Of a DNA stretch of 64,000 nt, positions 9,451-56,155 are shown piece after piece (the first letter of the stretch is position 1; each line of letters opens with the position of its first letter). The notes beneath the pieces were generated by a model, which was not told where the DNA came from, did not search any database, and worked only from the letters and a program-made list of their open reading frames with translations. The stretch comes from Aestuariivita sp. (lineage in GTDB: Bacteria; Pseudomonadota; Alphaproteobacteria; Rhodobacterales; Rhodobacteraceae). A program made the position numbers and the translations under genes. The DNA lies in the NCBI GenBank assembly GCA_965215385.1, contig OZ244059.1, positions 3,499,004 to 3,563,003 of the forward strand, read 5' to 3'.

Positions 9451-10056
9451 CCCGCTTTCAACACTGAGGTGCAACAATAGGCATTTTTGCACCCGCCTTT
9501 AGTGTTCTTCTGAACTGGTGAGCAGCCGCCGGGGTTATCAAGAATGGTTCGCTGTGTTGTCAGTGGTCAACAGCGGTCGCAATCTCTAACTGGGACTTTA
9601 GATCAGTCTAAGGTCAAGCGCAAGTAAAGTGCAATCCGATCTTTGCACCGGCACCTTGGCTGATCATGTCGACGGCTCGTCGTTACGCGATTGAACACTT
9701 TCGATAATGCGAGGGTTGAAGGCGGCGGCAGCCGCCTTTCCGTCTTGATCTGTCGGGCACCGATCGGCGCACTGCTGCTATTACGATACGAAGCAGCGGC
9801 AGATACCCCGATGCCGACTGGAACCGGGAATAGGCCAGGCTTGTTCGCGGCGGCCGGCGGACCCATACCCTTTCGACACTCCGCAGGTGCCCGCGTCCCT
9901 TCTTTCCGGCCATCAGGAACCGGGATTACCCAATTGTGCCCCGTGTTCTGACGCCAACCCGTGACGGATTGGCAGACAGAGAAACGATGTTTTTCCCAGT
10001 AGCCGATGATCAAGTCGATCATTATGCGGTCGCCATTTTGCGACGAGTATGAGCGT
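9451..10056 (-). repeat. IS30-linked conserved non-coding module, copy A
   Basis: It begins right after the IS30 transposase stop and ends at ...GTTGAAAGCGGG. It is homologous to 49769..50374 and 53549..54168. The ORFs predicted in it fall in different frames in each copy. Confidence 0.75.
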
Positions 10057-10574
10057 TCAGGCCCTGGCCGCGGCCATCACCTCCTGCGGGGTGCGATACC
10101 CCAAGACCTGGCGTGGGCGCGTATTGAAAGCATCCGGCACGCGCTGTACCGCCGTCACCGCCCGGAAATCGGTGCCCTTCGGAAAATACCCGCGGATCAA
10201 GCCATTCGTATGCTCGTTCAAACCGCGTTCCCAAGACGCATAGGGACGGGCAAAAAAGAACGACGCGGATAAGGTTCGAGCCCTTGTTTCATGACGGGCA
10301 AATTCCTTGCCGTTGTCGGCGGTAACGGTGTGCACCGGATACGGTGCCAGTCGGGTGCTAATGGCCTCACCAACCGCCACCGCCGTTTTGCGACTAACCT
10401 TCTGGATTAACACGAGTTTCGACATCCGATCCACCAGCGTGATCAGCGCCCCGCGGTGCCCCTTGCCAATCACGGTATCCACCTCCCAGTCTTCAATCCG
10501 CGACTTGGCCGCAACGCACTCGGGGCGCTCGGAGATGTCCACCCGGTTCGGAATGCAGCCGCGCCCGCGGTTGT
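10057..10574 (-). pseudogene. IS30-family transposase, C-terminal fragment
   Basis: GRGCIPNRVDISERPECVAAKSRIEDWEVDTVIGKGH...NTRPRQVLGYRTPQEV is about 90 percent identical to the C-terminus of the intact copy at 48812..49768. Homology stops at about 10574. Confidence 0.85.
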
Positions 10575-11097
10575 GTGGCGGACCAACCCAGCCACCAGTC
10601 ACGCACCCCCACCTTGAAAGCTCCCGCCTGCCAGCCCAGCAACGCCACCCAACCGTCGTTCACCACCGCAACCTGGCGTCACGCCCGACCAAAGGTCCGG
10701 TCAAAGCCAAGATCGTGATGCGTTGCGACCAACCGATCCCACAAATGTTGCTCCGTCATCCCCCAAACCGGGCGGACGGTCATATCGCGGAGCGAAAATG
10801 GTGGCAGTTTCGAACCATCGTTTCTCATCATGCGAGACGCACAACACAACGACAATTTCGCTCCCAGTGAAAAATCATCAAACGACGATTATTGTTTCGA
10901 GCGGTAAATTGATCGCCGAACAGCGGCCAAGCGGGACGAAAATGACCGAAAACCCGCCATTATAACCCGAATCCAGCCGATGACGACGAAAATCATCCCG
11001 AAATCGCGACGACGACGTGACAAAACTTACGGCGGGATGACAACATATAGGGCGTCAGAAGGTCGCAATAAACAATATGCTCGACCTTGGCTTAGCC
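10575..11097 (-). mobile_element. Fragment of the DUF4338/ISAs1-type element (5-prime part)
   Basis: The nucleotide sequence is the reverse complement of about 59525..60052. Homology ends on both sides at sharp junctions, with the IS30 fragment on one side and unrelated DNA on the other. Confidence 0.7.
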
Positions 11098-11226
11098 CTC
11101 GGTGGCGGCGGTTCCGCGGATCCATTGGTCGGAACCTGGGGTGGTGGCGACGACGGTTGCTTGGGCTGAGGATTCATCGCGTTATACGGTCGCCCTTGTG
11201 ACGCGGGTCATTGACTGCTGCCGGAA

Positions 11227-12114
11227 GTGAGCGTGGCCGCGGTCACCCGTCAGTTCGGTTTAGGTTGGAAAGCGATTGATGGCGTCAAGCCGCGTGCTGT
11301 CCGGCGCGGGTTGGCCCGCCGTACCGAGACCTGTGCGACCGCTCGGTGTGTCGATGAGACCGCGTTCAAGAAGCACCACGATTATGTGACGCTGGTGTCC
11401 GATCCGGCCACAGGTGCGGTCATGCCTGTGGCCGCGGACCGAAAAGCGGCGAGTCTTGCCGCCTGGTACGAGAGTCTTGATGCCGCCGACCTCGCCGGGA
11501 TCAGGAGCGTGTCGATGGATATGTGGCCGGCGTTTATCACGGCGACGCGTCAGTTCGTTCCCGACGCCGACCAAAAGATCGCCTTTGATCGCTTTCACAT
11601 TGCCAAACACCTCGGCGCGGCGGTGGATAAGGTCCGCCGTAGTGAAAACAAGGCCTTGTGGCGGGAAGGCGATACCACTCTTAAAGGCAGCAAATACAAA
11701 TGGCTGCAGAATCCCGCCAACATGTCAAATCGTCAGCAGCAGGACTTCAAGTCACGGCGCGACAGTGCGCTCATGACCGCCCGCGCTTATGCCCTCAAGG
11801 AACTGGCACCGTCACGATGGAACTATGTCAGCCGCACGTTGGCGGAGCAAGGCTGGCAGCGATGGCTTAGCTAGGCCGTGCGATGCCGGCTGGCGCCAAT
11901 GGTCACCGCCGCGAAGATGATCAAACGCCCCCTAGGGGGCATCATCAACGCCATCGTCCTCAGGATCAGCAACGGCCCGGCCGAGAGCCTCAACAGCCGC
12001 TTCAAGTCGGTCAAGATTAAGGCATGTGGCTTTCGCAACAAGACCTGTTTCATCACCGACATCTACTTCCATCTCGGCGGCCTCGACCTCTATTCAAGCA
12101 CTTCGAGAATTTAA
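11227..12114 (+). pseudogene. ISL3-family transposase, N-terminally truncated, in-frame TAG
   Basis: ...DETAFKKHHDYVTLVSD..., SMDMWPAFI..., DRFHIAKHL... and then ...SNGPAESLNSRFKSVKIKACGFRN are ISL3 signatures. ORFs 11227..11874 and 11878..12114 are in the same frame, separated by TAG 11872..11874. Confidence 0.8.
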
Positions 12115-25869: not shown

Positions 25870-28800
25870 TTACCAGCGCACGGTAGCTTTAACGCCGACT
25901 GTTTGCTCTGGCACTTGGGTAGCATCCGCCTCATGGGTCAACTTCAGGTCAAGGTAGAGGTCGGGCGCGGACGTTACTTCCCGGGCAAGTCGCCAACCGA
26001 GGGTTGTAACGCGTGTCTTTGTTCCAAGTCCGACGTCAGCGTATGGGCTGCCGATGAAGCGGCCGTCGGCGATTGGCCAGCCCCAGGCTGCTCCCACAGT
26101 CAAACGGGATTCGGCTTGGCTCCCCCCAGCACGTTCTTGCATCGGGTCAGGCGCAAACAGTGCATCAAGTCCGCCTTGGAACTGTGCGCCTGCGTCGTGG
26201 CGAAGGCTGAAGGACGGCCCGCGTTGAGTGGTCGGGTCGGGGTCAAAAGTGAAGGCGGCGGAGAGTCCGCGATCCTCAAAAGTTTCGTCCTCATGGGCGA
26301 TAAGCGTACGACCTGAGAGATCAAGGGAGAGGCCGAGGCGCGGATGGGACCAGGTAATTCCGCCACCGAATTCAAACCCGAGGCCAGTCTCCGCATCGCC
26401 CCCGTCGCGCCGTGCCCCGGCCGCAAGCGACGGGGTGAGATGACTGTCGCCGTCGAATGTAAGGTGCCAGCGGCTCTCCAAACCGAGACGGAGTCGCGTT
26501 ACCTTGACGTTAGTCGCCGCTAGGTCGAGGCCTCTGTTCGAAGTAGTTTTTGCTCTTAGCGCGTCGGCGATTATCGTCACTGCTGGGACGGAGCCATCAG
26601 CCGACGGTGTCAGGACACTGCCACGCACGCCAGTCGCCGCCATATACCAGTCAATATCGGCGCGATAGCTTCGGTGCGTACTTCTCAGGGTTACGTCACC
26701 TTTACCTTTGCCGAGCGCACCCCAGAACTCTAACTGCTCTGAGATTTGCCAGACTCCGTATGGAACAGCGGCTCTCAGCGAGGCTTCGATGCCACCGTCA
26801 CACCGCATCGGCACACGGTCTGCGACCTGCGGGCAGGTCGAACTGCCCACGCCGAAATAATCACCCTCGGACTTACTCTGCGTTAGTGCAACGCCGACGA
26901 GCCAATCCCCCTGTGCGTAATCCGCCCCGAGCAAGCTAGTGGTAACCTTGCCATCAAGGAGGACACTTTCTCCGCCACCGCGCTCGGTGCCGTCGAAGCG
27001 GTTTTGCGAAGCACGGCCCCAAAAGGCCATCGTACCGCCGGCGGCGTCAGGTTGTCCCGTTAGCGCAAAGCGAGATCCTAGCAGCGCCTCCTGCGCCGTG
27101 AGTATGAGCGAGGGGGACGCGGACGAATCGAACGGGTCGATCGCTCTGACGGGGACGGCAGAATTAAAAGTTAACGGTTGCCCAGCGAGGGCACCCCGAA
27201 AGCCGGGGGTGCGCTCAGCCGCGGTTCGAACGGCGATACCGTCAAGTGTTTGCTCTGCCAGCGTGCGCCCGAAGCGCACGAGGTACGCAGAGGCTAGGGC
27301 CGAGGCATTGTCATCAATCATCGACGGAAGGTCGTCGTCCACCACCTCTACTTCGGATGATATTGTTGCGCCTAGCCGATAGTTAGTGCCGGTGACCACC
27401 GTTACCGATACCAGCCCTGATGGCTCATCGGTGCTATCCGCCACGGTAGCCACCGTGAGGTTCTGTGTACTTTGCCCTGCGGGGATTACGATCATCTGCG
27501 CCCCTTCATTAGCTGGAGCAATGAAGTCGGCACCTTTAGCGTCCGCGACTATATAGTTCACTCTCAGGTTGGTTAACGGTACCGGGTTAACGGTGAGCCT
27601 GAATGTCAGCAATTCACCCTCGGCCAAAGGCCCGGCGGAAGCGGCCGTCACGATCACGCTTGGCGTCTCTCTCGGCTGGGGTTGGTCGTCATTATCGGTC
27701 ACGGTCACTGCCACATCACCTGTAACTGAACCATAGTCGCCACCGCTTGCGCTATGGTTGAGCGTGGTGCTGTCATCGCTGTTATCGTCGTCTTCGCCAG
27801 CGGTAACCGTGACCGTCTGTGCAGTACTCCAGTTGCTCGAATTGAACGTCAGCGTGTTCTGATCGCCGTCGGCGACGCCATCAGTGTCGATTGTCACCTC
27901 ATCGCTTACGCCCGTGACGGTCACAGTGACAATACCCGTCGGCTGGGTGGCCAATGCCACCGTGTAGGTTCCGCTACCACCCTCGTCGATGGTCAGTACA
28001 GTTGGATTAAGAACCAACCCTGGAGTATCATTGTCAGTGACTGTCACTGCCACATCACCTGTAACTGAACCATAGTCGCCACCGCTTGCGCTATGGTTGA
28101 GCGTGGTGCTGTCATCGCTGTTATCGTCGTCTTCGCCAGCGGTAACCGTGACCGTCTGTGCAGTACTCCAGTTGCTCGAATTGAACGTCAGCGTGTTCTG
28201 ATCGCCGTCGGTGAGACCATCAGTGTCGATTGTCACCTCATCGCTTACGCCCGTGACGGTCACAGTGACAATACCCGTCGGCTGGGTGGCCAATGCCACC
28301 GTGTAGGTTCCGCTACCACCCTCGTCGATGGTCAGTACAGTTGGATTAAGAACCAACCCTGGAGTATCATTGTCAGTGACTGTCACTGCCACATCACCTG
28401 TAACTGAACCATAGTCGCCACCGCTTGCGCTATGGTTGAGCGTGGTGCTGTCATCGCTGTTATCGTCGTCTTCGCCAGCGGTAACCGTGACCGTCTGTGC
28501 AGTACTCCAGTTGCTCGAATTGAACGTCAGCGTGTTCTGATCGCCGTCGGTGAGACCATCAGTGTCGATTGTCACCTCATCGCTTACGCCCGTGACCGTC
28601 ACAGTGACAATACCCGTCGGCTGGGTGGCCAATGCCACCGTGTAGGTTCCGCTATCACCTTCAACCACAGTCAGAGCATCGGGTTCGAAGATGAGAGCTG
28701 CCGAAGGAGGTGGAGGAGTTGTGGGCGTCTCAGGGATTGTGGGTGGAGGAGTTGTGGGCGTCTCAGGGGTTGTGGGTGGCGTCGACGGGGCGGTCGGTGT

Positions 28801-30135
28801 TGCCGATACCGCGCTTACGGCACCTAGGACCGTGCCGGCAACGGCGCGAACTTCAAATTCGTAAGTCTGACTGTTGGTTAGGCCAGTGACCGTATGGCTG
28901 GTGGTGGACGCACTAGAACTAATCTGCGTCCAACTCCCCCAACTGCCGCCGGAAATCCTTTGACGTAAATCATATCTCGTGATCGCAGAGTTGCTCGGAT
29001 CGTTCCACGTCAGCACCACCTGGGCGTCACCTGACGAAGCGGACAGATTACTAGGAGCAGCAGGGGCGGTGGGTGACGGGGCGGTCGGTGTTGCCGATAC
29101 CGCGCTTACGGCACCTAGGACCGTGCCGGCAACGGCGCGAACTTCAAATTCGTAAGTCTGACTGTTGGTTAGGCCAGTGACCGTATGGCTGGTGGTGGAC
29201 GCACTAGAACTAATCTGCGTCCAACTCCCCCAACTGCCGCCGGAAATCCTTTGACGTAAATCATATCTCGTGATCGCAGAGTTGCTCGGATCGTTCCACG
29301 TCAGCACCACCTGGGCGTCACCTGACGAAGCGGACAGATTACTAGGAGCAGCAGGGGCGGTGGGTGACGGGGCGGTCGGTGTTGCCGATACCGCGCTTAC
29401 GGCACCTAGGACCGTGCCGGCAACGGCGCGAACTTCAAATTCGTAAGTCTGACTGTTGGTTAGGCCAGTGACCGTATGGCTGGTGGTGGACGCACTAGAA
29501 CTAATCTGCGTCCAACTCCCCCAACTGCCGCCGGAAATCCTTTGACGTAAATCATATCCCGTGATCGCAGAGTTGCTCGGATCGTTCCACGTCAGCACCA
29601 CCTGGGCGTCACCTGACGAAGCGGACAGATTACTAGGAGCAGCAGGGGCGGTGGGATCATCATTATCATTGACAGTCACGGAAAAGGTACCGGGGCTGCC
29701 CCTCTTGTACAAATTTGGTTCGGTTGCTTTGGCGGGTAGTGAGATTGTAAAGAAACCGTTGTCCTCGTCCTCTCGATCGTCATCGGTACTAACCGTTATT
29801 ATGCCAGATTCTGTCTCCATTTCCGCAATTGTTACATAAAAGTTTGTAACATTCTCACCTACGCCCTGTCTTGCTCCTCTGACTGAGAGCCCAAAATCAT
29901 CACTGTCACTGAGCTGAAATCTCACTTCTAGGGAAGCAGGGGCAGTAACGCTTAGTCGAATTTTGAATGCTGCGCATTCACCCTCCGTGATCGGACCCGA
30001 CTTCGGGGGCGTACCGCAGGGAACCCGCTGAAGTGTGACAGAGGGGCGGTTATCATTTTGCGCTTCTACCGGGGACAGAGTAGCCGAGAGCAGCAGGCAT
30101 AAAACGATCAGCGTACAGCCGGTTCGGTACCTCAT
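25870..30135 (-). CDS. Large autotransporter adhesin-like protein (Calx-beta-like, FN3 x3, repeated Ig-like domain x3, C-terminal beta-barrel)
   Basis: The signal peptide MRYRTGCTLIVLCLLLSATLSPVEAQ suggests a start near 30135 inside ORF 25870..30246. It has three 97-aa FN3-type units (...VVLTWNDPSNSAIT.YDLRQR...YEFEVRAV...) and three 113-aa units ending ...VTVTDND. The C-terminal roughly 280 aa are rich in G/S/A/T alternating strands and end ...VKATVRW (autotransporter barrel). Confidence 0.8.
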   Translation of the reverse strand: MRYRTGCTLIVLCLLLSATLSPVEAQNDNRPSVTLQRVPCGTPPKSGPITEGECAAFKIRLSVTAPASLEVRFQLSDSDDFGLSVRGARQGVGENVTNFYVTIAEMETESGIITVSTDDDREDEDNGFFTISLPAKATEPNLYKRGSPGTFSVTVNDNDDPTAPAAPSNLSASSGDAQVVLTWNDPSNSAITGYDLRQRISGGSWGSWTQISSSASTTSHTVTGLTNSQTYEFEVRAVAGTVLGAVSAVSATPTAPSPTAPAAPSNLSASSGDAQVVLTWNDPSNSAITRYDLRQRISGGSWGSWTQISSSASTTSHTVTGLTNSQTYEFEVRAVAGTVLGAVSAVSATPTAPSPTAPAAPSNLSASSGDAQVVLTWNDPSNSAITRYDLRQRISGGSWGSWTQISSSASTTSHTVTGLTNSQTYEFEVRAVAGTVLGAVSAVSATPTAPSTPPTTPETPTTPPPTIPETPTTPPPPSAALIFEPDALTVVEGDSGTYTVALATQPTGIVTVTVTGVSDEVTIDTDGLTDGDQNTLTFNSSNWSTAQTVTVTAGEDDDNSDDSTTLNHSASGGDYGSVTGDVAVTVTDNDTPGLVLNPTVLTIDEGGSGTYTVALATQPTGIVTVTVTGVSDEVTIDTDGLTDGDQNTLTFNSSNWSTAQTVTVTAGEDDDNSDDSTTLNHSASGGDYGSVTGDVAVTVTDNDTPGLVLNPTVLTIDEGGSGTYTVALATQPTGIVTVTVTGVSDEVTIDTDGVADGDQNTLTFNSSNWSTAQTVTVTAGEDDDNSDDSTTLNHSASGGDYGSVTGDVAVTVTDNDDQPQPRETPSVIVTAASAGPLAEGELLTFRLTVNPVPLTNLRVNYIVADAKGADFIAPANEGAQMIVIPAGQSTQNLTVATVADSTDEPSGLVSVTVVTGTNYRLGATISSEVEVVDDDLPSMIDDNASALASAYLVRFGRTLAEQTLDGIAVRTAAERTPGFRGALAGQPLTFNSAVPVRAIDPFDSSASPSLILTAQEALLGSRFALTGQPDAAGGTMAFWGRASQNRFDGTERGGGESVLLDGKVTTSLLGADYAQGDWLVGVALTQSKSEGDYFGVGSSTCPQVADRVPMRCDGGIEASLRAAVPYGVWQISEQLEFWGALGKGKGDVTLRSTHRSYRADIDWYMAATGVRGSVLTPSADGSVPAVTIIADALRAKTTSNRGLDLAATNVKVTRLRLGLESRWHLTFDGDSHLTPSLAAGARRDGGDAETGLGFEFGGGITWSHPRLGLSLDLSGRTLIAHEDETFEDRGLSAAFTFDPDPTTQRGPSFSLRHDAGAQFQGGLDALFAPDPMQERAGGSQAESRLTVGAAWGWPIADGRFIGSPYADVGLGTKTRVTTLGWRLAREVTSAPDLYLDLKLTHEADATQVPEQTVGVKATVRW
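27690..28680 (-). repeat. 339-bp tandem repeat, about 2.9 units, inside the autotransporter
   Basis: Shadow ORFs restart at 27754, 28093 and 28432, exactly 339 bp apart, with almost identical sequence. Only a few substitutions are visible between units. Confidence 0.9.
28780..29660 (-). repeat. 291-bp tandem repeat x3 (FN3 units) inside the autotransporter
   Basis: GGTGTTGCCGATACC recurs at 28796, 29087 and 29378, a 291-bp period (97 codons). The units are nearly identical. Confidence 0.9.
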
Positions 30136-30581
30136 AGTGAAGTTCCAAATTCCAGAAAGAGTCTTAGAAATAGTCATGAAAAACCGGGGCGCACAAAAAA
30201 GTTCCCTAGTAGTATTCGTTGAGTTAAAAATATTCTTCAATGTCATTTTTCCTTTCTAGGCCTGTCGGACGTTCAAAAAAAAGTTTTGCTAGTCGTTAAA
30301 ATTATGTGAGGCCTATGTCAAGTGATTAGGGAGCCACGGGTGTGGTTCTCATATGGTGTCGGCCGAATTTTTGAAGCCGTTGATATGACTAGATAATTTT
30401 AGATCGGATTTCACGGCTCGCGCCGATTTCGCCGGCTTTCGCGAAACGTTACCCGGTCGCGCCAAATTTTTCCCGATTCGGCGGTTTTAGCCAAGACTAT
30501 TTGCTGTTGTGGCGGGTGTGGTAGCGTGCGCCAAAATTCACCCCAAACGTCTTTGATCAAAGACGAGAAAGGAGCACTCTG

Positions 30582-40950: not shown

Positions 40951-40965
40951 CCTGAGGGTTTGGGC

Positions 40966-43923
40966 ATGGTCAGCGAGACAAGTGAGAAAGCCCTTGAGGA
41001 CTTAATCGAAGCGGCCTTTCTGGCGACGGGCTATGTCCAGGGCCGCAACACGGATTTTGACGCGGAATTGGCTCTGGACACCACACAGTTCTGGACCTTC
41101 CTGGAGGCCACACAGGCGGACGAACTCGACAAGCTGCGGCCCTATGGTGATTGGAAAGCTCGTATCCTGAACCGTCTCAACAACAAGATCAAGAAGGATG
41201 GTCTCCTCACCGTTCTGAAGAAAGGTCTGAGCATTGAGAATGTCCATCTCAAACTGCTTTACCGTTTGCACTACAACACTCTGAACCCCGAGGTAGAGCG
41301 GCTGTTTGAAGCCAATATCTTCTCGGTCACCCGGCAGGTGCATTTCTCCAACGTCACGCCGATGGACTCGGTCGATCTGGTGCTGTTCATCAACGGCCTA
41401 CCCGTTGTGACCATGGAACTCAAGCAGCCATGGAAAGGTCAGACCGTCCATCATGCTCGCATGCAGTACCAAAACCGCGATTACCGTGAACCGTTGTTCC
41501 AATTCGGTCGCTGTTTAGTGCATTTTGCGGTGGATACGCAAGAAGTATCCATGTCCACCAGGCTGGCTGGGACGAACACGTTCTTCCTACCGTTCAATAA
41601 AGGTGATGGTCATGGCAAGGGCAACCCGATCAATCCGGTGGGTCACAAGACCGCGTACCTGTGGGAAGACGTTCTGCAAAAACGGTCACTGACTAATATC
41701 ATTGAGCACTTCGCCAAGATCGTCACGGAAGAGGATAAGGAGACTGGTAAGAACGTCAAGACACTGTTCTTTCCCCGATATCATCAGTTGGATGTCGTGA
41801 GACAAGTGCTCAATGATGTTAAATCCAATGGTGTAGGATGTCGATATCTGATCCAGCACTCAGCAGGGTCGGGTAAATCGAATTCCATCACTTGGCTCGG
41901 GTATCAGTTGATCGAGACGTATAATGCGGAGGGCACCGCTAACATCTTTGATAGCGTGATTGTGGTCACGGATCGGCGGATTTTGGACAAGCAGTTGAAG
42001 GACAACATCCAAGCGTTCTCGGAGGTTAAGAATGTCGTCGCCCATGCCTACGATTCTGCCGAATTGAAGCGTACGCTGGAGAACGGTAAGAAGCTGATCA
42101 TTACCACGATCCAGAAATTCCCATGGATGCTGGAGGGCATCGCCGATCTCTCTGACCGGAAGTTCGCAGTGATCATCGACGAGGCCCATTCCTCCCAGTC
42201 CGGCAAGGCTGCCGACACGATGAACGAAACGATCAGCGGTGGTCGTGACGAGGAGGAGCCGGAAGACCTGCAAGACAAGATTTTGGCGGCGATGGATCGC
42301 CGGAAAATGGGACGCAACGCCTCGTTCTTTGCGTTTACTGCAACACCCAAGAATACCACGCTCGAACGCTTTGGACGGCAGACAACAGACGGTCGCTTCG
42401 TACCCTTTCATCTATATTCAATGAAGCAGGCGATTGAGGAAGGCTTCATTCTGGATGTGTTAAAGAATTATACCACAATCAGAAGCTACTACGAACTTCA
42501 GAAATCCATCGACGATAATCCGGAGTTCAATACCAAGAGGGCACAGAGCAAGCTACGGAGCCATGTCGAAGCCCATCCCGACACCATCAAGACTAAAGTT
42601 GGGATCATGCTCGACCACTTTCATGAACGTGTGGTGCGGCCCCAAAAACTGAAGGGCAAGGCGCGGGCCATGGTTGTCACACGAAACATCGAGTCGGCCA
42701 TTCAGTATTTTCTGGCCATCAGAGAGTCTCTGAAGGCCACAGGAAACCGGTACAAAGCGGTGGTCGCCTTTACTGGCACAAAGTCGGTTGATGGAGTAGA
42801 GTACACTGAGGACAGATTGAACGGGTTTTCAGGTAATGAGATCGCAAAAAAGTTCAAAGACGACGCGTACCGCATTCTGGTGGTGGCGAACAAGTTCCTG
42901 ATGGGCTTCGATGAGCCGATGCTCACCACAATGTATGTGGATAAAAAACTGCAAGGTGTGTTGGCGGTGCAGGCTCTGTCGCGACTGAACCGATCCAACC
43001 GGAAACTGGGTAAGGAAGAGACCTTCATCCTCGATTTCCACAATACGGTTGAGGATATCAAAGAGGCCTTCGATCCGTTTTACACATCAACTGCTCTGAG
43101 TCAGCCAACCGACGTCAATGTGTTGCATGATCTCAAGGATGATCTGGATGATACGGGCATTTATGAATGGGACGAAGTGGTTCAATTTAATCAACTCTTC
43201 TTAGATGGTGCTGAAGCGGATCAACTCTCACCGATCCTGGATATGGCTGCGAGTCGCTTCAACGAACAAGAAGATAGCGAGAAGATCGATACCAAGATCA
43301 AAGCCAAACAGTTTGTCAAAATCTACGCTCAGGTGGCCTGTATCATCCCGTTCGATAATGCGAATTGGGAAATGCTACATTGGTTCCTGAAGTTCCTGAT
43401 CCCTGAAATGAAGGTCAAGGACAACGACCAATCAAAAATTGATGGATTGCTGGAAAGTATCGACCTGACTACCTACGGCCTGGAGCGAGTAAAGATCAGT
43501 CATACAATTAGTCTGGACGACTCGGACAGCGCGATTGACCCAGCAAATCCAAATCTCCGGGGTGGTTATGATGATCCGGGAATAGACCCTTTGGACAAGA
43601 TCATTGCTGACTTCAACGAACGCTATTTCAAGGGGTGGGATGCAACTTTGGAAGAGAAGAAGATTAAGCTGATCAACATCCTGAATCATGCTAAGGAAAA
43701 CCAAGCGTTCCAAGAGAAAGTTATGTCAAACCCCGATGAACAAAACCGTCGTATCGCAAGCGGAAATCTGTTTGAAAAAGCCATGTACAAAGAGCGGAAA
43801 AGAGAATTAGATCTTTACAAAAAGTACATCTCAGATGACGACTTCAAGTTAGGTCTACATGAAGCCCTGTTTCGCGTGATGGAGCAGGATTTGAAATCGA
43901 ATTCCAGACCTGAAGCGAGATAG
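40966..43923 (+). CDS. hsdR: Type I restriction enzyme endonuclease/translocase subunit
   Basis: Nuclease-domain N-terminus, Walker A HSAGSGKSNS, DEAH box IIDEAHSSQSG and helicase C motifs (...VVANKFLMGFDEP...). About 985 aa. Confidence 0.9.
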   Translation: MVSETSEKALEDLIEAAFLATGYVQGRNTDFDAELALDTTQFWTFLEATQADELDKLRPYGDWKARILNRLNNKIKKDGLLTVLKKGLSIENVHLKLLYRLHYNTLNPEVERLFEANIFSVTRQVHFSNVTPMDSVDLVLFINGLPVVTMELKQPWKGQTVHHARMQYQNRDYREPLFQFGRCLVHFAVDTQEVSMSTRLAGTNTFFLPFNKGDGHGKGNPINPVGHKTAYLWEDVLQKRSLTNIIEHFAKIVTEEDKETGKNVKTLFFPRYHQLDVVRQVLNDVKSNGVGCRYLIQHSAGSGKSNSITWLGYQLIETYNAEGTANIFDSVIVVTDRRILDKQLKDNIQAFSEVKNVVAHAYDSAELKRTLENGKKLIITTIQKFPWMLEGIADLSDRKFAVIIDEAHSSQSGKAADTMNETISGGRDEEEPEDLQDKILAAMDRRKMGRNASFFAFTATPKNTTLERFGRQTTDGRFVPFHLYSMKQAIEEGFILDVLKNYTTIRSYYELQKSIDDNPEFNTKRAQSKLRSHVEAHPDTIKTKVGIMLDHFHERVVRPQKLKGKARAMVVTRNIESAIQYFLAIRESLKATGNRYKAVVAFTGTKSVDGVEYTEDRLNGFSGNEIAKKFKDDAYRILVVANKFLMGFDEPMLTTMYVDKKLQGVLAVQALSRLNRSNRKLGKEETFILDFHNTVEDIKEAFDPFYTSTALSQPTDVNVLHDLKDDLDDTGIYEWDEVVQFNQLFLDGAEADQLSPILDMAASRFNEQEDSEKIDTKIKAKQFVKIYAQVACIIPFDNANWEMLHWFLKFLIPEMKVKDNDQSKIDGLLESIDLTTYGLERVKISHTISLDDSDSAIDPANPNLRGGYDDPGIDPLDKIIADFNERYFKGWDATLEEKKIKLINILNHAKENQAFQEKVMSNPDEQNRRIASGNLFEKAMYKERKRELDLYKKYISDDDFKLGLHEALFRVMEQDLKSNSRPEAR

Positions 43924-47626: not shown

Positions 47627-48706
47627 TTGGAGTCGCTCACAGCGAACCTTGCGACACTCACCCAACAGCACGATATGCAAGTGCGCATATGCGATCTGCA
47701 AACGCGATGGACAGCACTCGAAACGGACGCGGCGCAGCAGGGATGTCATCCTTGGCATGTGACCGGATACCAATGCATTGTGGCGCACCTCCTGACGTTC
47801 AAGCACGAGCAACCCGCCGACATGCCCCCAAACCTCATCGCAGCGATTGACAAGCACCATGTCTGGGATGAACAGGCAACGCAACTTCATCAGGATGTTC
47901 AGAAAATAATGGCGTTTGATGCCCGCCGTCGGGCGGTCGTCAAAGCCGCCGACAAATGGACTCCAGAAACACCCCTCACGCACAGTCGTCTCACTCGCTA
48001 TGGTCGGTGGGCGCGTGCTGCACCAAAGATGATCGCCGAAAGACAACAACTCACCCACAATCCACTCCTGTCACCAGAGGATCGCAAGATACTTGAGAAC
48101 GCATTGGAGCGCATCACAGCGTCACTGGATGGTTGTGGTTTGGAAGCCAAGCATCTTGGTCGCTTTGAGACCACCATTGAGACAGCCGACGCGCAAGGAT
48201 GCCATCGGTTCTTTGTGAAGGGTTATGACCGCTTTATCATCGGTTTACGGAAGCGAACGACATCACCAGAGCGAAATACACTGGCGTTGCGTGAATTCGA
48301 CGTGCAGAAGACGATGAGAATGAACCAGCGTATTGTTCACAAGCTTGATCGCGATCTGAACCAAGCTTTGCGAGAACGAGAGACCGGTGGCGAGGCCTTC
48401 GTCGCCGAAATGTTTTCTTACGACCATTGGGAACGTAATACAACAGAATGGCTCCATCTCGCCCGGAATGTCCTTCATGATCAAGCCCGCTATGATATCC
48501 ATTTAGATCGCGTGCGCGGATTAAAGAGACGCATACACATGACCGCCACAAAAATCGAAACATATATTAAGCAGGACGCGCCGATTCGAAAAGACGTCAA
48601 GGCTGCCTTTGATCAAGAATCCGAACGAAAGACTGCGAAACTGATGCAGCAAATCAAGAGCCGATCTCGGTCGCGCGGTCTGGGATTATCGTCCGTTCAA
48701 TTTTGA
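47627..48706 (+). CDS. Hypothetical protein (359 aa) downstream of the relaxase remnant
   Basis: Complete ORF with GC similar to the relaxase. No motif recognised. It could be a relaxase C-terminal extension or an accessory protein. Confidence 0.4.
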   Translation: MESLTANLATLTQQHDMQVRICDLQTRWTALETDAAQQGCHPWHVTGYQCIVAHLLTFKHEQPADMPPNLIAAIDKHHVWDEQATQLHQDVQKIMAFDARRRAVVKAADKWTPETPLTHSRLTRYGRWARAAPKMIAERQQLTHNPLLSPEDRKILENALERITASLDGCGLEAKHLGRFETTIETADAQGCHRFFVKGYDRFIIGLRKRTTSPERNTLALREFDVQKTMRMNQRIVHKLDRDLNQALRERETGGEAFVAEMFSYDHWERNTTEWLHLARNVLHDQARYDIHLDRVRGLKRRIHMTATKIETYIKQDAPIRKDVKAAFDQESERKTAKLMQQIKSRSRSRGLGLSSVQF

Positions 48707-48811
48707 ATTGCAACACGTCGATGTGGTGGTTTAGGATTTTTGGTTTACAGATATTGTATTGAGGTCAGGAGTTGGTATGAATCTCTGAATAGGTATATTA
48801 AGGAGATTCCG

Positions 48812-49768
48812 ATGCCAAACGGCTACCACCACCTGACCTACACGGATCGATGCCAAATATACGCCTTAAAGGCAAGCGGGTATTCGCAGCGTGCCATCGC
48901 CCGCGAAATGAACCGCAGTCCGGCGACGATTTCACGGGAACTTCGTCGTAATAGCGGTGAACGGGGGTACCGTCACAAGCAAGCTGAACATCAGGCGCGA
49001 GAGCGTCGTCGTGCGGCGTCGTCGCGGCCGTGGAAGCTGACGGCGGAGCTTTGGTCCTTGATTGAAGGACTCTTGGGTTTGGCCTGGAGTCCGGAACAGA
49101 TTGCTGGTCGTCTGCGTCGCGACGGGGTGGTTTCGGTGAGCGCCGAATGGATCTATCAGTATATTCGGGCGGATCGGCAGCGCGGCGGGGTGTTATGGCG
49201 ATCGTTACGCCGTCGGGGTAAGAAGCCAAATGTGACGGCGGGCCGGGACCGCGGGCGCGGCTGCATTCCGAACCGAGTGGACATCTCCGAGCGTCCGGCG
49301 TGCGTTGCGGCCAAGTCGCGTGTTGGCGACTGGGAGGTGGATACCGTGATTGGCAAAGGGCACCAAGGAGCACTGGTAACGCTCGTGGATCGGATGTCGA
49401 AACTCGTGTTAATCCAGAAGGTTAGTCGCAAAACGGCGGTGGCGGTGGGTGACGCCATTAGTGCCCGACTGGCACCCTATCCGGTGCACACCATTACCGC
49501 CGACAACGGCAAGGAATTTGCGCGTCATGAAACGATGGCTCGAACCTTATCGGCGTCGTTCTTCTTTGCTCGTCCCTATGCGTCTTGGGAACGCGGTTTG
49601 AACGAACATACGAACGGCTTGATCCGCGGGTATTTTCCGAAGGGCACCGATTTCCACGCGGTGACGGCGGCGGAGGTGCAGCGCGTGCAGGATGCTTTAA
49701 ATACGCGGCCACGCAAGGTCTTGGGGTATCGCACCCCGCAGGAGGTGATGGCCGCGGCCAGGGCCTAA
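48812..49768 (+). CDS. IS30-family transposase
   Basis: MPNGYHHLTYTDRCQIYALKASGYSQRAIAREMNRSPATISRELRRN (HTH), ...WEVDTVIGKGH..., ...ITADNGKEFA... and ...NEHTNGLIRGYFPKGTDF... (DDE). Start at the ATG inside ORF 48740..49768. Confidence 0.9.
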   Translation: MPNGYHHLTYTDRCQIYALKASGYSQRAIAREMNRSPATISRELRRNSGERGYRHKQAEHQARERRRAASSRPWKLTAELWSLIEGLLGLAWSPEQIAGRLRRDGVVSVSAEWIYQYIRADRQRGGVLWRSLRRRGKKPNVTAGRDRGRGCIPNRVDISERPACVAAKSRVGDWEVDTVIGKGHQGALVTLVDRMSKLVLIQKVSRKTAVAVGDAISARLAPYPVHTITADNGKEFARHETMARTLSASFFFARPYASWERGLNEHTNGLIRGYFPKGTDFHAVTAAEVQRVQDALNTRPRKVLGYRTPQEVMAAARA

Positions 49769-50374
49769 ACGCTCATACTCGTCGCCAAATGGCGACCGCA
49801 TAATGATCGACACGATCATTGACGACTTGGAAAAAAAAATCGTCTCTCTCGATTCTAATCCGTCATGGGTTTGCCGTCAGAACACGGGGCAAAATTGGGT
49901 AATCCCGGTTCCTGATGGCCGGAAAGAATGGACGCGGGCACCGGAGGAGTGTCGAAAGGGTATGGGTCCGCCGGCCGCCGTGAACAAGCCTGCCCCTATT
50001 CCCGGTTCCAGTCGGCATCGGGGTATCTTCCGCGGCTTCGTATCGTAATCGCCGAAGCGCACCGGTCGGCACCCGACAGATCCAGAAGGAAAGGGGGCTG
50101 CCGCCCCCTTAAACCCCCGCAGATCGAATGTGTTCAATCGCGTAACGACGAGCTTCGACATGATCAGCCGAGGTGCCGGTGCAAAGATCGGATTTCACTG
50201 TACTTGCGCTTGACCGGAGACTGATCTAAAGTCCCGGCTAGAGATTACGACCGCTGTTGATCACTGACAACACAGCGAACCATTCCTGATAACCCCGGCG
50301 TCAATCCCCCGGCTGAGATAAATACTGAAGTTTAGTAAAAAAAGCCGGGTATTGCACTTCATTGTTGAAAGCGG
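49769..50374 (+). repeat. IS30-linked conserved non-coding module, copy B
   Basis: Homologous to 9451..10056 (reverse complement) and 53549..54168. It contains the hairpin AAGGGGGC-TGCC-GCCCCCTT at 50091..50110. Confidence 0.75.
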
Positions 50375-50667
50375 GTATGATAAACGAGATGGCGTTTTCA
50401 ACATGACAGTGTTCACGTTCCTTACGAAGTAAAAAACCCCGAATATTTAACGCCGTCTTGAAAGACCGAGGGTTTCTTCTATGCAAGCAGTTGCTCTTGA
50501 CCACTCTATTTTTCGTATATTTACAGTGTTTTATTAATAAAGATCGCTTGAGAATACGACTGAGACAAAATCGACTTTCACTGGACATTACACGCCGAAA
50601 AGCTATCTGTAGAATCAACATGGTACCTGCTGGGGTGCACCAATAAATAACCCTGAGAGATCAGCAC

Positions 50668-52934: not shown

Positions 52935-53270
52935 ATAGAGAGTTCAATCAAATGGTCTTCGATTGAATATATCAATTGCAATTACGATCTCAAAAAATGC
53001 GGAAATCAGAAATACGTCGTATATATGATTTATTTTTATTGATACTCAATGCGATATACAGAATAGAGCAACAGCGAATTTAATGAAGCGCAGTTTTTGT
53101 CCGAAAATGCAACTTTTTGTCTTATGGGATATGATCACGACGTCTACGCAAAGCACAAAAAAAGTACTTACATTCGCTTTTAACCTCTTGTATTTACGAA
53201 ATAAATAGAGAGAAGAATATAAGCTGTGTAAGGGGTTTTGATTCAAGAATCAGAAATAAATTTGATTACA

Positions 53271-53548
53271 CCCTTACCGCCGACAACGGCAAGGAATTTG
53301 CGCGTCATGAAACAAGGACTCGAACCTTATCCGCGTCGTTCTTTTTTGCCCGTCCCTGTGCGTCTTGGGAATGCGGTTTGAACGAACATACGAATGGCTG
53401 GATCCGCGGCTATTTTCCGAAGGGCACCGATTTCCAGGCGGTGACGGCGGCGGCGGTGCAGCGCGTGCCGGATGCTTTCAATACGCGCCCACGCCAGGTC
53501 TTGGGGTATCGCACCCCGCAGGAGGTGATGGCCGCGGCCAGGGCCTGA
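53271..53548 (+). pseudogene. IS30-family transposase, extreme C-terminal remnant
   Basis: ...TADNGKEFARHETR..., ...NEHTNGWIRGYFPKGTDF... and ...GYRTPQEVMAAARA are homologous to the last roughly 90 codons of 48812..49768, with indels. Confidence 0.8.
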
Positions 53549-54168
53549 ACGCCCATACTCGTTGCAAAATGGCGACCGCATAATGATCGACTTGATCATC
53601 GGCTACTGGGAAAAACATCGTCTCTCGGTCTGCCAATCCGTCACGGGTTTGCGGTCAGAACACCGGGCACAATTGGGTAATCCCAGTTCCTGATGGCCGG
53701 AAAGAACGGACGCGGGCACCTGCGGAGTGTCGATTAGATGGTATCGGTTTGCCGGCCGCCGCGAACAAGCCTGCCCCTATTCCCGGTTCCAGTCGGCATC
53801 GGGGTATCTGCCGCTGCTTCGTATCGTGTCGCCGAAGCGCACCGATCAATGCCCGACAGATCAAGACGGAAAGGCGGCTGCCGCCCCCTTCAACCCCCGC
53901 ATTATCGAAGGTGTTCAATCGCGTGTCAACGAGCCGTCGACATGATCAGCCGCGGTGCCGGTGCAAAGATCGGATTGCACTTTACTTGCGCTTGACCCGA
54001 GACTGATCTAAAGTCCCAGTTAGAGAGTGCGACCGCTGTTGACCACTGACAACACAGCGAACCATTCTTGATAACCCCGGCGTCAATCCCCCGGCTGAGA
54101 TAAACACTGAAGTCTAGTCAAAAAACGCCGGGGGTTGCACTGCATTGTTGAAAGCGGGTTTCAAAAAA
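53549..54168 (+). repeat. IS30-linked conserved non-coding module, copy C
   Basis: Homologous to copies A and B. The hairpin at 53871..53890 has one C-C mismatch. It ends at ...GTTGAAAGCGGG (54168), 57 bp before the group II intron 5-prime end. Confidence 0.75.
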
Positions 54169-54225: not shown

Positions 54226-56155
54226 GTGCGCCGAGGAAAGGCGTAATCTCCTAGCGGGTGCGAATCCCGCCCAACAACTGTCGCTCCGGTTGGTAGCAAG
54301 CGCGGCGGATCATAGCGGTAACGATATGGTTTGAAGCACTGCGCATAGAAGGGCAACAATAGGCTGCTCAGCGACCATACAGGCCGAAACGCGAGTGAAC
54401 ACTGAGCCGGCCTCGAAACGCGTAAGACGCGTGACGACCTTTCTGTGTCTAAGGGAAGTCTGGCATCCGTCAAGAAGCGAGCGATAAGAGCATTGACTGG
54501 ACGCTTCGGGGTAGTGGTGTCGGCATGTATGGAAGATGGGGAGTATCGAAACTGGGGAAGCCCTATTTGTGGTTTTGCACAAACTAAACCAGCAACCCAT
54601 GAGGGTGAGGCTGGGCAAGCAGGGTGGCGGACAGGCTTGTAGTACTGAGGACACTGGGTAATGCCAGTCGCGGGAAGAAGCCTGACTATTGGGGTAGTAT
54701 GGGAAGGACGAAACGGACCTGGCTACTGAAACGCATCGACTAAGGTCAAAGAAAGTTGGGCGACGCCAGAGCATACTTCATGAGAAAGCGAAGCAGGATT
54801 CGAGTTATCGATTTTATTCGCTGAGCGATAAAGTGTCGAGTTTTGAGTTTCTCGTGGAAGCTTACTCACGTGTTGAATACAAAGGTGGTGCAGAGGGCAT
54901 TGATGGGGAGACTCTTGACGACCTTGAGGCGTATGGCGTTATGCGATGGCTTGAGGAACTTTCGCAAGAACTTCGGGAGCGGACCTACAGGCCGAAACCT
55001 GTGTGTCAGGTTCTGATACCTAAGAAGCAACCGGGGCAACATCGCACCTTGGTATTCCATGCATCCGCGACAGGGTGGCGTAGACATCGGTTTTACTTGT
55101 ATTGGAACCGATATTCAAAGCCGACTTGGTAGCGGAACATTACGCGTATCGTCCGCGCCGGGGAGCGCATGGGGCGGTTAACCGCATTCATAAGCTTCTC
55201 AACACGGGTCATAACGAGGTTGTTGACGGGGATTTATCGAATTACTTTGGAGAGATCCCCAGGCCGAACTCTTGACGAGTATTTCCCGCTGTATTAGCGA
55301 CCGGAATGTGCTGCGATGGATTAAGGCAGGGCTGGAGATACCAACGGAACAGGATGATGGTCGGGACGGAAAGTCCGTTCATCGACGGCACGCAAGGAAC
55401 GGAAGGGCACTCCGCAAGGAGCACCTATTTCACCCCTTGCAAGCAACATCTACATGCGAAGGTTTATTCTTGGTTGGAAAGCGTTAGACTATGCTCGGCG
55501 TTTTCAGGCGGTAATTGTCAATTACGCGGATGATTTTGTCGTTCTCGGCAAAGCGAAGTCAACAGCAATGTTGGCAGCGGTCGAAGAGATAATGCCGAAA
55601 TTAAAGCTGCCGATCAATGACCGCAAAACTCAATGCTTACGATATCCGGAGGAATCATTTGAGTTTCTTGGGTATCGTATTGGACGCAACTATCGCAAGC
55701 AAGGTACGGGGTCGTATATCGGCACCCGACCAAGTCAGGCGAGTGTTCAGAGCATATGCCGTAAGGTTAGTGAGCAAACGGCCGCGAAGCATGGTGTGAT
55801 GGACACTCAAGAGATGGTTGCTCGGCTCAATCGTATGATTATCGGCTGGCCAACTCCTATCGTCTTGGGCACGTCAGTCCCGCCTATGTTGCGATTGATG
55901 CTCACACGACGAAACGGCTGCGACAGCGGCTCGGTCGGAAGCAAGGTGAAGTTTGGGAAATATGTGCGCTTCTTAGATGACAAACTGTCGAATACCTACG
56001 GTTTGAAACGCCTTGCGCCAATGACTGAGGGCTTTGCGTGGACGAAGTCATGATACCCAATGGGAAAGCCGAATGCGGGAAATACGCACGTTCGGTTTGG
56101 CGAGCGGGGGAGAGGAAACCCACCTTAAGGAAAGGGCACCTCCCCTCGACTCAAC
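54226..56155 (+). mobile_element. Group II intron (bacterial, no En domain visible) with decayed IEP
   Basis: 5-prime GTGCG at 54226..54230. Domain V-like AAGCCGAATGCGGGAAATACGCACGTTCGGTTT at about 56066..56098, followed by a GC-rich domain VI-like hairpin (GCGGGGGAG...CCTCCCCTCG). The 3-prime end is estimated, not mapped. Confidence 0.75.
54833..56053 (+). pseudogene. Group II intron reverse transcriptase/maturase, several frameshifts
   Basis: RT blocks are spread over three frames: ...GIDGETLDDLEAYG..., ...YRPKPV..VLIPKK..., ...AYRPRRGAHGAV..., ...VVDGDLSNYFGEIP..., ...GTPQGAPISPLASNIYM..., NYADDFVVLG, then a maturase X-like tail. Confidence 0.8.

Follow-up and report, generated by a model that had tools for sequence, protein, structure and literature searches.

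We analysed a 64,000-nt stretch of DNA from an Aestuariivita sp. genome (contig OZ244059.1, positions 3,499,004 to 3,563,003; hereafter, the window), in which a tail of ~606 bp directly follows the stop codon of an IS30-type transposase gene in three copies. This tail is a non-coding 3′ part inside an insertion sequence (IS) of the IS30 family, where it fills the interval from the end of the transposase gene up to the right terminal inverted repeat (IRR), and it consists of two parts. The proximal part is, by sequence comparison, later lineage-specific non-coding DNA in near-neutral evolution. The distal part was inherited from the ancestor of an IS30-like clade found in sponge-associated bacteria. 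As an overall reading, we tentatively propose, with confidence somewhat short of even, that this distal module is a regulatory end of the element, equipped with a junction promoter and possibly with a mimic of the Shine–Dalgarno (SD) region of the transposase gene. An earlier note on this DNA had presented the whole tail as a conserved module with a covarying hairpin; that headline overstates the case, as the real signal comes from the final ~180 nt together with the family context.

Boundaries of the element and position of the tail

The complete element is copy B (48690..50375, plus strand), which spans 1,686 bp. One ENA metagenome assembly has four other contigs that encode the exact protein of copy B. 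Similarity to these contigs began at the equivalent of 48690 and stopped at the equivalent of 50375 (98.9–99.4% over ~1,686 nt), and the flanks of the five full copies were unrelated. Copy B is flanked by the 3-bp duplication TAT (48687–48689 and 50376–50378), and the target duplications of the four other full copies read GAG, TTG, TCC, and ATT. With four insertions of related elements (TAA, ACA, GCA, and ACG), 3-bp duplications were found at nine insertions in all. The left terminal inverted repeat (IRL, CGTCCGTTCAATTTTGAATTGCAACAC, 48690..48716, plus strand) shares 18 of 27 positions with the reverse complement of the IRR (GTATTGCACTTCATTGTTGAAAGCGGG, 50349..50375, plus strand), and the two are in register from either tip. 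The IRR forms the last 27 nt of the tail, and the similarity among all copies stops there. Homologous ends are carried by the relatives of the element, in which the terminal repeats match at 19–26 of 28 positions.

Because the ends are shared, the flanks are unrelated, 3-bp duplications are present, and the IRR lies at the distal tip, the tail is internal to the element. The earlier note had suggested that the true ends be defined from additional full copies; done in this way, they are 48690 and 50375. It had also named an IRR directly after the stop codon as an arrangement that would speak against its proposal; the IRR instead ends the tail. Finally, the note had considered that the tail could be a repeated chromosomal target, always entered by the IS at the same position. 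This idea is refuted by the unrelated flanks of the five copies, by the duplications, which lie outside the tail and together with the IRR bound it, and by the IRR at the tail tip. A tail without the IS was never seen in the collections searched, and we give the target explanation practically no weight.

The transposase gene (48812..49768, plus strand; 957 bp) encodes 318 amino acids (aa) with an N-terminal HTH_38 domain (Pfam, E = 5e-18) and an integrase core (rve, E = 1e-6; at 29.4 bits, just below the curated cut-off of 32.6). Its homologues are named 'IS30 family transposase' in the source records. By its transposase domains, repeats, and duplications, the element is a member of the IS30 family that departs from the usual compact form. 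In common with IS30 of E. coli, ISApl1, and ISAba125, it has HTH_38 plus a DDE integrase core, imperfect ~27-bp repeats, 3-bp duplications, and a preference for AT-rich targets. Unlike ordinary members, it exceeds the expected ~1.0–1.25 kb, the gene taking up just 57% of the 1,686 bp; compactness is a usual trait of the family and not a strictly defining one. As the earlier note stated of ordinary IS30 elements, there is almost no tail in the more distant relatives that we sampled (≤54% identity; Rhizobiaceae, Gammaproteobacteria, Xenorhabdus, and Saccharospirillum), which measure 1,055–1,230 bp with 40–65 nt after the stop codon.

The repeat described earlier at the 3′ end of all three IS30 copies was located in each of them. 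The tail occupies 9451–10056 (minus strand) in copy A, 49769–50375 (plus strand, ~606–607 nt) in copy B, and 53549–54158 (plus strand) in copy C. The coordinates previously given for copy A were right, but those for the two other copies needed correction: the tail of copy B ends at 50375 rather than 50374, and that of copy C at 54158 rather than 54168. Copies A (9451..10574, minus strand) and C (53271..54158, plus strand) are 5′-truncated elements, their transposase genes being cut off at ~10574 and ~53271, as had been noted. Identity to copy B is 88.8% for copy A (10571..9451, minus strand; 1,131 nt compared) and 89.5% for copy C (53268..54167; 903 nt compared).

The possibility that the long tail arose when transposition skipped past an older, inner right end was considered and rejected. 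No sequence resembling a fossil inverted repeat was found inside the tail above chance level (best match 15 of 27; shuffled mean 15).

The proximal filler and tests for coding capacity and RNA structure

The division of the tail became apparent when copy B was compared with its relatives. The closest ones have the same long tail of ~610 nt: L008 and L009, at 91% protein identity to copy B, and L152, for which protein identity was not measured and the whole IS is 89.5% identical at the nucleotide level. The others have shorter tails, namely 335 nt in L010 (86% protein identity), 361 nt in L011 (81%), 293 nt in L005 (80%), and 294 nt in L006 (77%). In these shorter-tailed relatives, the alignment with copy B starts at the left tip, breaks off after the stop codon, and resumes only over the last ~80–180 nt. 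Since they align only in the distal part, the proximal ~427 nt (49769..50195, plus strand) are confined to the long-tail lineage; this stretch is absent from relatives at 74–86% protein identity.

We compared the divergence of this proximal filler with that of third codon positions in the transposase gene. The respective values were 12.8% and 17.8% for copy B versus L008, 12.3% and 14.6% for copy B versus L152, and 6.4% and 7.6% for L008 versus L152. As the divergence of the filler is near the third-position values, its rate of change is close to neutral. Its GC content is like that of the IS and unlike that of the flanks, and its open reading frames (ORFs) have no homologues outside their own genome and no Pfam or Rfam matches. 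The conservation over 600 bp is thus mostly recent common descent, not structure, and the proximal 427 nt probably have no function of their own. Separately, we observed a 20-nt direct repeat within the filler (49900–49919 and 49997–50016; TAATCCCGGTTCCTGATGGC and TATTCCCGGTTCCAGTCGGC), 80% identical and 97 nt apart, both copies of which fall in blocks that are invariant among copies.

The hairpins on which the earlier note had based a structured element are present in the sequence. They are GTCGCC-AAAT-GGCGAC, AATGATCG-ACA-CGATCATT, GCTTCG...CGAAGC, AAGGGGGC-TGCC-GCCCCCTT at 50091–50110 in the filler, and CCCCGGCG...CGCCGGGG in copy C. We counted covariation in these five hairpins on eight tails representing six lineages (alignment A5). 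In total, 88% of the cells pair, and 23 of the 36 pairs are invariant. A single pair changes on both sides: in AAGGGGGC-TGCC-GCCCCCTT, it is G-C in the lineage of copy B and C-G in copy A, and the same pair is a C·C mismatch in the four other lineages. One compensatory pair was reached by 307 of 500 shuffles, and the covariation term calculated by RNAalifold for the A5 tails was −0.32 kcal/mol out of −138.6. The compensatory pair cited as evidence of structure is therefore at chance level. The second stem, said to keep pairing with a different sequence in copy A, is explained by a shift in register there, which clustered substitutions in this single dead copy have produced. In sum, the hairpins exist and the data give no sign of selection on them; the tail is IS-borne and non-coding, as had been suggested, but the structural evidence offered for it does not exceed chance.

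We likewise assessed whether the tail encodes a protein, or recently encoded one, as a passenger gene or a decayed one. The strongest candidate is a minus-strand ORF of 94 aa in copy B (49877–50161), the C-terminal ~60 codons of which are open in most copies. However, its variable sites are distributed 11:9:8 over the codon phases, that is, with no periodicity; the frames differ upstream; and the tail of L001b has a stop inside the ORF. In agreement with the earlier note, tail ORFs lie in differing frames and strands between copies, and the tail indels among copies are mostly of 1–2 nt. No Pfam match was obtained for four tail ORFs. An exhaustive phmmer search of the minus-strand ORF against 1.84 billion representatives gave one marginal match (E = 1.2e-5), and the 139-aa tail ORF of copy A, searched against 5.8 billion proteins, matched only ORFs from its own 3.58-Mb genome. 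With no codon periodicity, conserved frame, or homologues, the tail does not make the element a cargo-carrying IS, and we consider a coding origin very improbable. A 10-codon mini-ORF in the conserved core of the tail was dropped as well, its start and stop not being kept in L005 or L011.

Known RNA families were not detected either. Scanning the window with Rfam 15 at the gathering score yielded none in the tail, and the Rfam/Infernal check proposed in the earlier note gave no tail match better than E = 0.12 (at 22 bits, with the cut-off at 57). The tails of 11 relatives, scanned in turn, contained none either.

The distal module and its counterparts in related elements

The distal right-end module (50196..50375, plus strand; ~180 nt) is common to all relatives at ≥77% protein identity. 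Searched against 153 loci, an nhmmer profile built from this interval of copy B matched all elements of the sub-clade and no other sequence, and the shared blocks are visible in two alignments, A3 and A4. The module begins with a predicted sigma-70-like promoter motif that points to the right end (50204..50232, plus strand), made up of TTGCGC (50204–50209), a 17-nt spacer, and TAAAGT (50227–50232). In A4, TTG and TA.A..T (TAnnnT) are invariant, the spacer sequence varies, and the spacing is 17–18 nt. Invariant hexamer cores around a variable spacer resemble the usual signature of a promoter. The motif lies 167–177 nt from the end of the extracted tail, a length that includes 3 flanking nt, in copies B and C and in L008, L010, L011, L005, L006, L012, L019, and L030, ten elements that include relatives of ~60% identity. 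For copy A, the regular expression matched another site (TTGCAC, 187 nt), and A4 shows that the homologous TTGCGC...TAAAGT is there too.

The most conserved blocks of A3 and A4 are found immediately downstream of the motif (50240..50301, plus strand). They comprise AGAGATT (50240–50246), a core hairpin formed by CGCTGTTG and CAACACAGCG (50252–50277), and AACCATTC. The core hairpin is kept in eight of nine sequences, with no compensatory change, and the covariation term of the consensus fold of the module is +0.23. A putative 136-nt transcript of 50240–50375 would have a fold that is not unusually stable (z = −1.5). No terminator-like site was found between the promoter motif and the end, or in the leader of the transposase gene.

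A different result was obtained for the end-proximal stem (50296–50301 with 50342–50347; 50296..50347, plus strand), which encloses a variable segment of ~40 nt before the IRR. Within the sub-clade, three of its six pairs have changed on both sides, and none of 500 shuffles reached its covariation score. Two haplotypes occur over ~45–60 nt just inside the IRR (50302–50348 in copy B; 9478–9524, minus strand, in copy A; 54085–54131 in copy C). They are 65–72% identical, with the rest of the element at 86–96%: copies B and C and L152 carry one, copy A, L008, and L001b carry the other, and L010 is a mosaic. This distribution suggests recombination among IS lineages or diversifying change. In copy C, the end-proximal stem (CCCCGGCGT/ACGCCGGGG) has 9 bp. 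An inward-facing, mirrored promoter at the right end (GTGCAA, 17 nt, TAAACT, minus strand) was dropped as a candidate, as by eye it is limited to one haplotype and L010.

To follow the layout beyond the sub-clade, we used loci fetched directly together with a protein-based scan of representative genomes. Relatives at 57–64% identity, which come from metagenome-assembled genomes (MAGs) labelled Candidatus Poriferihabitaceae, Paracoccaceae, and Alphaproteobacteria, are ~1,330–1,390 bp long and have tails of ~240–300 nt. Across the clade, above ~56% identity, tails measure 260–360 nt, and those of the long-tail lineage exceed 600 nt. Even where the sequences cannot be aligned, the long-tailed clade shows one layout: one or more GC-rich hairpins, a promoter-like motif, a GAGAT-type start of a transcribed-looking stretch, a stem, and the IRR. 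In the ~60% relatives, the stem adjoining the IRR has 12–19 perfect pairs, a sequence that differs from lineage to lineage, and a conserved loop, TCGGGCTACGCCCTC. On six sequences, nine of 12 pairs are compensatory and all cells pair, and no shuffle or slid register came close. This alignment was centred by hand on the hairpins, which favours pairing; the compensated differences are nevertheless plain in the sequences. Real covariation is thus limited to the end-proximal stem, and it is the relatives alone that show it strongly.

We also recorded several features of the hairpins themselves. The loop TCGGGCTACGCCCTC is in itself a GGGC-TAC-GCCC mini-hairpin; it was seen in the tails of L012 (3520–3582 and 3694–3746), L019, L026, L030, L034, and L058, twice in L012 and inverted in L019. 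The shorter-tailed L005, L006, L010, and L011 have, after the gene, perfect stems of 16–21 bp around a GGCC loop, in three different stem sequences. These GGCC-centred perfect palindromes measure 36–46 bp (L005 1308–1343, L006 3530–3575, L010 1232–1273, and L011 1236–1273). The palindrome sits just upstream of the promoter-like motif; the long-tail lineage is without it and has its extra 427 nt in that region.

Two further loci, L018 and L055, initially looked like parallel expansions of the tail, and this was rejected. Both are normal elements of ~1,350 bp followed by a second, solo right repeat. Between element and solo repeat, which has the same orientation, are 190–700 bp of other DNA (L018 3454–4447 and L055 3454–3926). 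Such an arrangement could be a structure that mobilises flanking DNA.

These data bear on the simplest alternative, that the whole tail is functionless, hitch-hiking DNA conserved through recent common descent. The proximal 427 nt behave in just this way, and the hairpins named earlier have no covariation support. The distal blocks, in contrast, are recognisable at 77–81% protein identity, at which the rest of the tail is unalignable; moreover, the layout recurs at ~60% identity, and stems are kept by compensatory changes. The 427-nt filler is therefore likely to lack a function, which is unlikely of the distal module; as an account of the tail as a whole, we find a lack of function improbable.

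Candidate roles of the right end and its wider occurrence

The transposition intermediates of IS30 are circles or tandem dimers in which the repeats abut, and the transposase is driven there by a junction promoter (PMC9333248). The distal module may be a regulatory end adapted to this cycle, with a weak sigma-70-type promoter that would fire toward the right repeat. In the integrated element, this promoter would give a read-out transcript, which would leave the element because no terminator-like site precedes the end. Copy-out-paste-in transposition via a circle or tandem dimer would abut the right and left repeats and so place the tail promoter upstream of the left end and the leader, ~265 nt upstream of the transposase start codon. 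There, it would be a ready-made junction promoter, raising transposase expression only after excision. The stem adjoining the IRR is probably a selected hairpin, which could be either an RNA structure (3′ or 5′) or a DNA feature marking the right end.

The leader of the transposase gene offers a possible second level of control. In copy B, a hairpin of GAATCTCT (48779–48786) with GGAGATTC (48802–48809; 48779..48809, plus strand) is predicted by RNAfold to bury the ribosome-binding site. Equivalent leader hairpins of differing sequence were predicted in all 15 related elements examined, and the stem variants (GAATCTCT/GGAGATTC, GACAGTCCC/GGGAGACTGTC, and GTTCCT/GGGAAC) keep pairing across relatives L005–L034. 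The conserved AGAGATT, with which the putative tail transcript would begin, repeats the SD arm of this hairpin and is complementary to the anti-SD arm, AATCTCT. On a junction transcript, AGAGATT could therefore partly free the buried ribosome-binding site. With the leader folded alone, the predicted probability that the SD is unpaired was 0.01 in copy B and 0.01–0.02 across copy B, L152, L010, and L005. On folding of the junction transcript, it rose to 0.20–0.33 in these elements, which are four of the seven close ones; with shuffled tails as a control, it was 0.01–0.09. A duplex prediction over the whole length of tail RNA and leader was uninformative, as the inverted repeats dominated it. 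Taken together, the models weakly suggest a ready-made junction promoter, possibly combined with a mimic of the SD arm.

With respect to promoters of the gene itself, the only promoter-like site listed by the scan upstream of the transposase gene is TTGGTA, 16 nt, TATATT (48772–48799, plus strand), which would start transcription at or past the ribosome-binding site. A better candidate by eye is TTGCAA in the left repeat, 18 nt, TAGGAT (48709–48738).

A number of observations weigh against a junction promoter with an SD mimic. The tail motif has 7 of 12 consensus positions, which is below the threshold of the promoter scan, and was not listed by it; the L026 and L034 groups have the motif in degenerate form, and L014 lacks it. 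Its TTGCNC hexamer resembles the repeat core TTGCAC and might be a protein-binding site instead of a −35 hexamer. The IS30 junction promoter is already formed from the repeats, and TTGAAA in the IRR could serve as its −35, which leaves no obvious need for a second promoter. In relatives, a GC stem of 12–19 bp stands between the promoter and the right repeat and might stop transcription. Regarding the mimic, the AGAGATT similarity covers 7 nt only, and little or no rise in SD opening was predicted for L008, L011, L006, and most ~60% relatives.

Some of the same features would fit a module that acts as DNA. It could contain a hairpin or sub-terminal sites bound by the transposase or by a protein of the host, serving either to tell the right end from the left or to enhance synapsis, and the promoter would then be incidental or secondary. 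TTGCGCTTGA at the '−35' resembles the repeat core TTGCACTTCA (8 of 9 matches in L010, by eye), and relatives have the perfect 36–46-bp palindromes plus a perfect stem with a conserved loop abutting the IRR. Sub-terminal sequences are reported to modulate IS30 transposition. Yet a repeat-like binding site leaves the TAnnnT located exactly 17–18 nt from TTG unexplained, and the tail contains no repeat-like sequence above chance. We judge a purely DNA-level role to be unlikely.

The module could also be a discrete, trans-acting small RNA (sRNA) of ~110–135 nt, running from ~50239 to the stem or the right repeat and controlling its own transposase. Such an sRNA would explain why the most conserved blocks of the tail come after a conserved promoter-like element, with a selected stem on the 3′ side, and its AGAGATT could pair with the anti-SD arm of the leader through AATCTCT. 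There is a precedent in ISPpu9, in which the transposase gene is reported to be regulated by an sRNA gene, that of Ssr9, lying downstream of it (PMC8450116, PMC12288879). Against it stand the lack of a U-rich terminator 3′ of the stem, the unremarkable fold of 50240–50375 and consensus covariation term of the module given above, the lack of an Rfam match, and a complementarity that is limited to 7 nt and is not kept in L006 or the ~60% relatives. An sRNA of this kind strikes us as rather unlikely. A broader conjecture, which we rate as quite unlikely, is that the clade has a dedicated, promoter-driven, right-end non-coding RNA in transposition control, which would be the IS30 family's first described RNA partner. 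That RNA might open the leader hairpin and so make translation of the transposase depend on the excised state, or it might act in trans as an sRNA, and the bimodal ~40-nt segment adjoining the IRR would be its specificity-determining part.

We also looked for the tail elsewhere. Similar DNA was not found in plasmid and phage records. An exact search with an 18-mer of the tail (AGACTGATCTAAAGTCCC) gave no matches in genome contigs, and one with a 25-mer gave none in metagenome contigs. A degenerate pattern of the core yielded 54 metagenome matches, all of which failed the nhmmer profile of the module and were rejected as chance. A lone tail-only fragment (L001 6161–6446) has right-end sequence of the L008 type and lies just upstream of a ManC-type gene, as does the L008 copy; it is presumably the remnant of this L008 insertion, broken by other elements. 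The ORFs called in the tail had matches only among those of their own 3.58-Mb genome, which shows that at least four further copies exist there, and ~49 transposase-derived proteins cluster in one 3.58-Mb contig. Because the closest relatives of the IS are in sponge-associated MAGs, a sponge symbiont in which IS elements have expanded is a possible source of the window.

The surroundings of the truncated copies are rich in other mobile DNA. The break of copy A adjoins an AT-rich stretch with repeated TTTTCGTC-like words (10575–11874), a nest of broken mobile elements that includes a fragment of an ISL3-family transposase (11227–11874; DDE_Tnp_ISL3, E = 1.5e-40). A group II intron (54226–56155, plus strand) begins ~70 nt past the right end of copy C. 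It has Rfam matches to RF02003 (54252–54394) and RF00029 (56064–56155), and its reverse transcriptase ORF (55454–56053) is short and scores weakly for RVT_1. In L152, an RVT_1 gene is also located ~60 nt from the right end of the IS. A link between the intron and the IS end was rejected: the flanks of L152 and the window have no similarity, and the adjacency is a coincidence. Also encoded in the window, at 25870–30246 (minus strand) and 40960–43923 (plus strand), are a protein of 1,458 aa that has several fibronectin type III domains and a type I restriction R subunit.

Among known systems, the junction promoter Pjunc of the IS30, IS3, IS21, and IS256 families follows the logic proposed here, in which a right-end promoter is active when the ends are joined (PMC9333248). 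Pjunc has its −35 in one repeat and its −10 in the other, whereas the pair predicted here is complete and lies ~145 nt inside the right end. Unlike Pjunc, the predicted tail promoter would also work in the integrated element. Outward-facing promoters in right ends are known from ISEcp1 and ISAba1, which belong to other families, and were found via the activation of resistance genes. Like these, the predicted outward promoter in a non-coding end could switch on neighbours; no activated neighbour was identified here. ISPpu9 (IS110 family) and its Ssr9 likewise combine a non-coding unit downstream of the transposase gene with a leader that limits translation (PMC8450116). The two systems differ in the transposase (DEDD in ISPpu9, DDE here) and have no sequence similarity. 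A conserved non-coding stretch beside a recombinase gene is likewise found in elements with guide RNAs, namely the bridge and seek RNAs of IS110/IS1111 and the omega RNAs of IS200/IS605. In contrast to these, the element has an ordinary DDE transposase, and its five ~99%-identical copies occupy five unrelated targets, which share no motif beyond AT-richness. The sites therefore cannot be chosen by a guide that the element encodes, and for practical purposes this excludes a role as guide RNA.

In the literature, the coverage of which was incomplete, we found no IS30-family element with a conserved long 3′ non-coding region or an RNA partner. IS30-family elements are regarded as minimal, with one gene between two repeats. 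The clade described here, which is abundant in sponge-associated bacteria, retains as a whole 260–360 nt of right-end non-coding DNA, and over 600 nt in the present lineage, with a conserved promoter-like element and a covarying stem adjoining the repeat. For annotation, a true element length of 1,686 bp means that gene callers produce spurious ORFs in the tail and that 5′-truncated copies are easily missed. If the promoter works, these elements would have a built-in boost of transposase after excision, and they would transcribe into neighbouring genes at every insertion, in a genome with dozens of copies or fragments.

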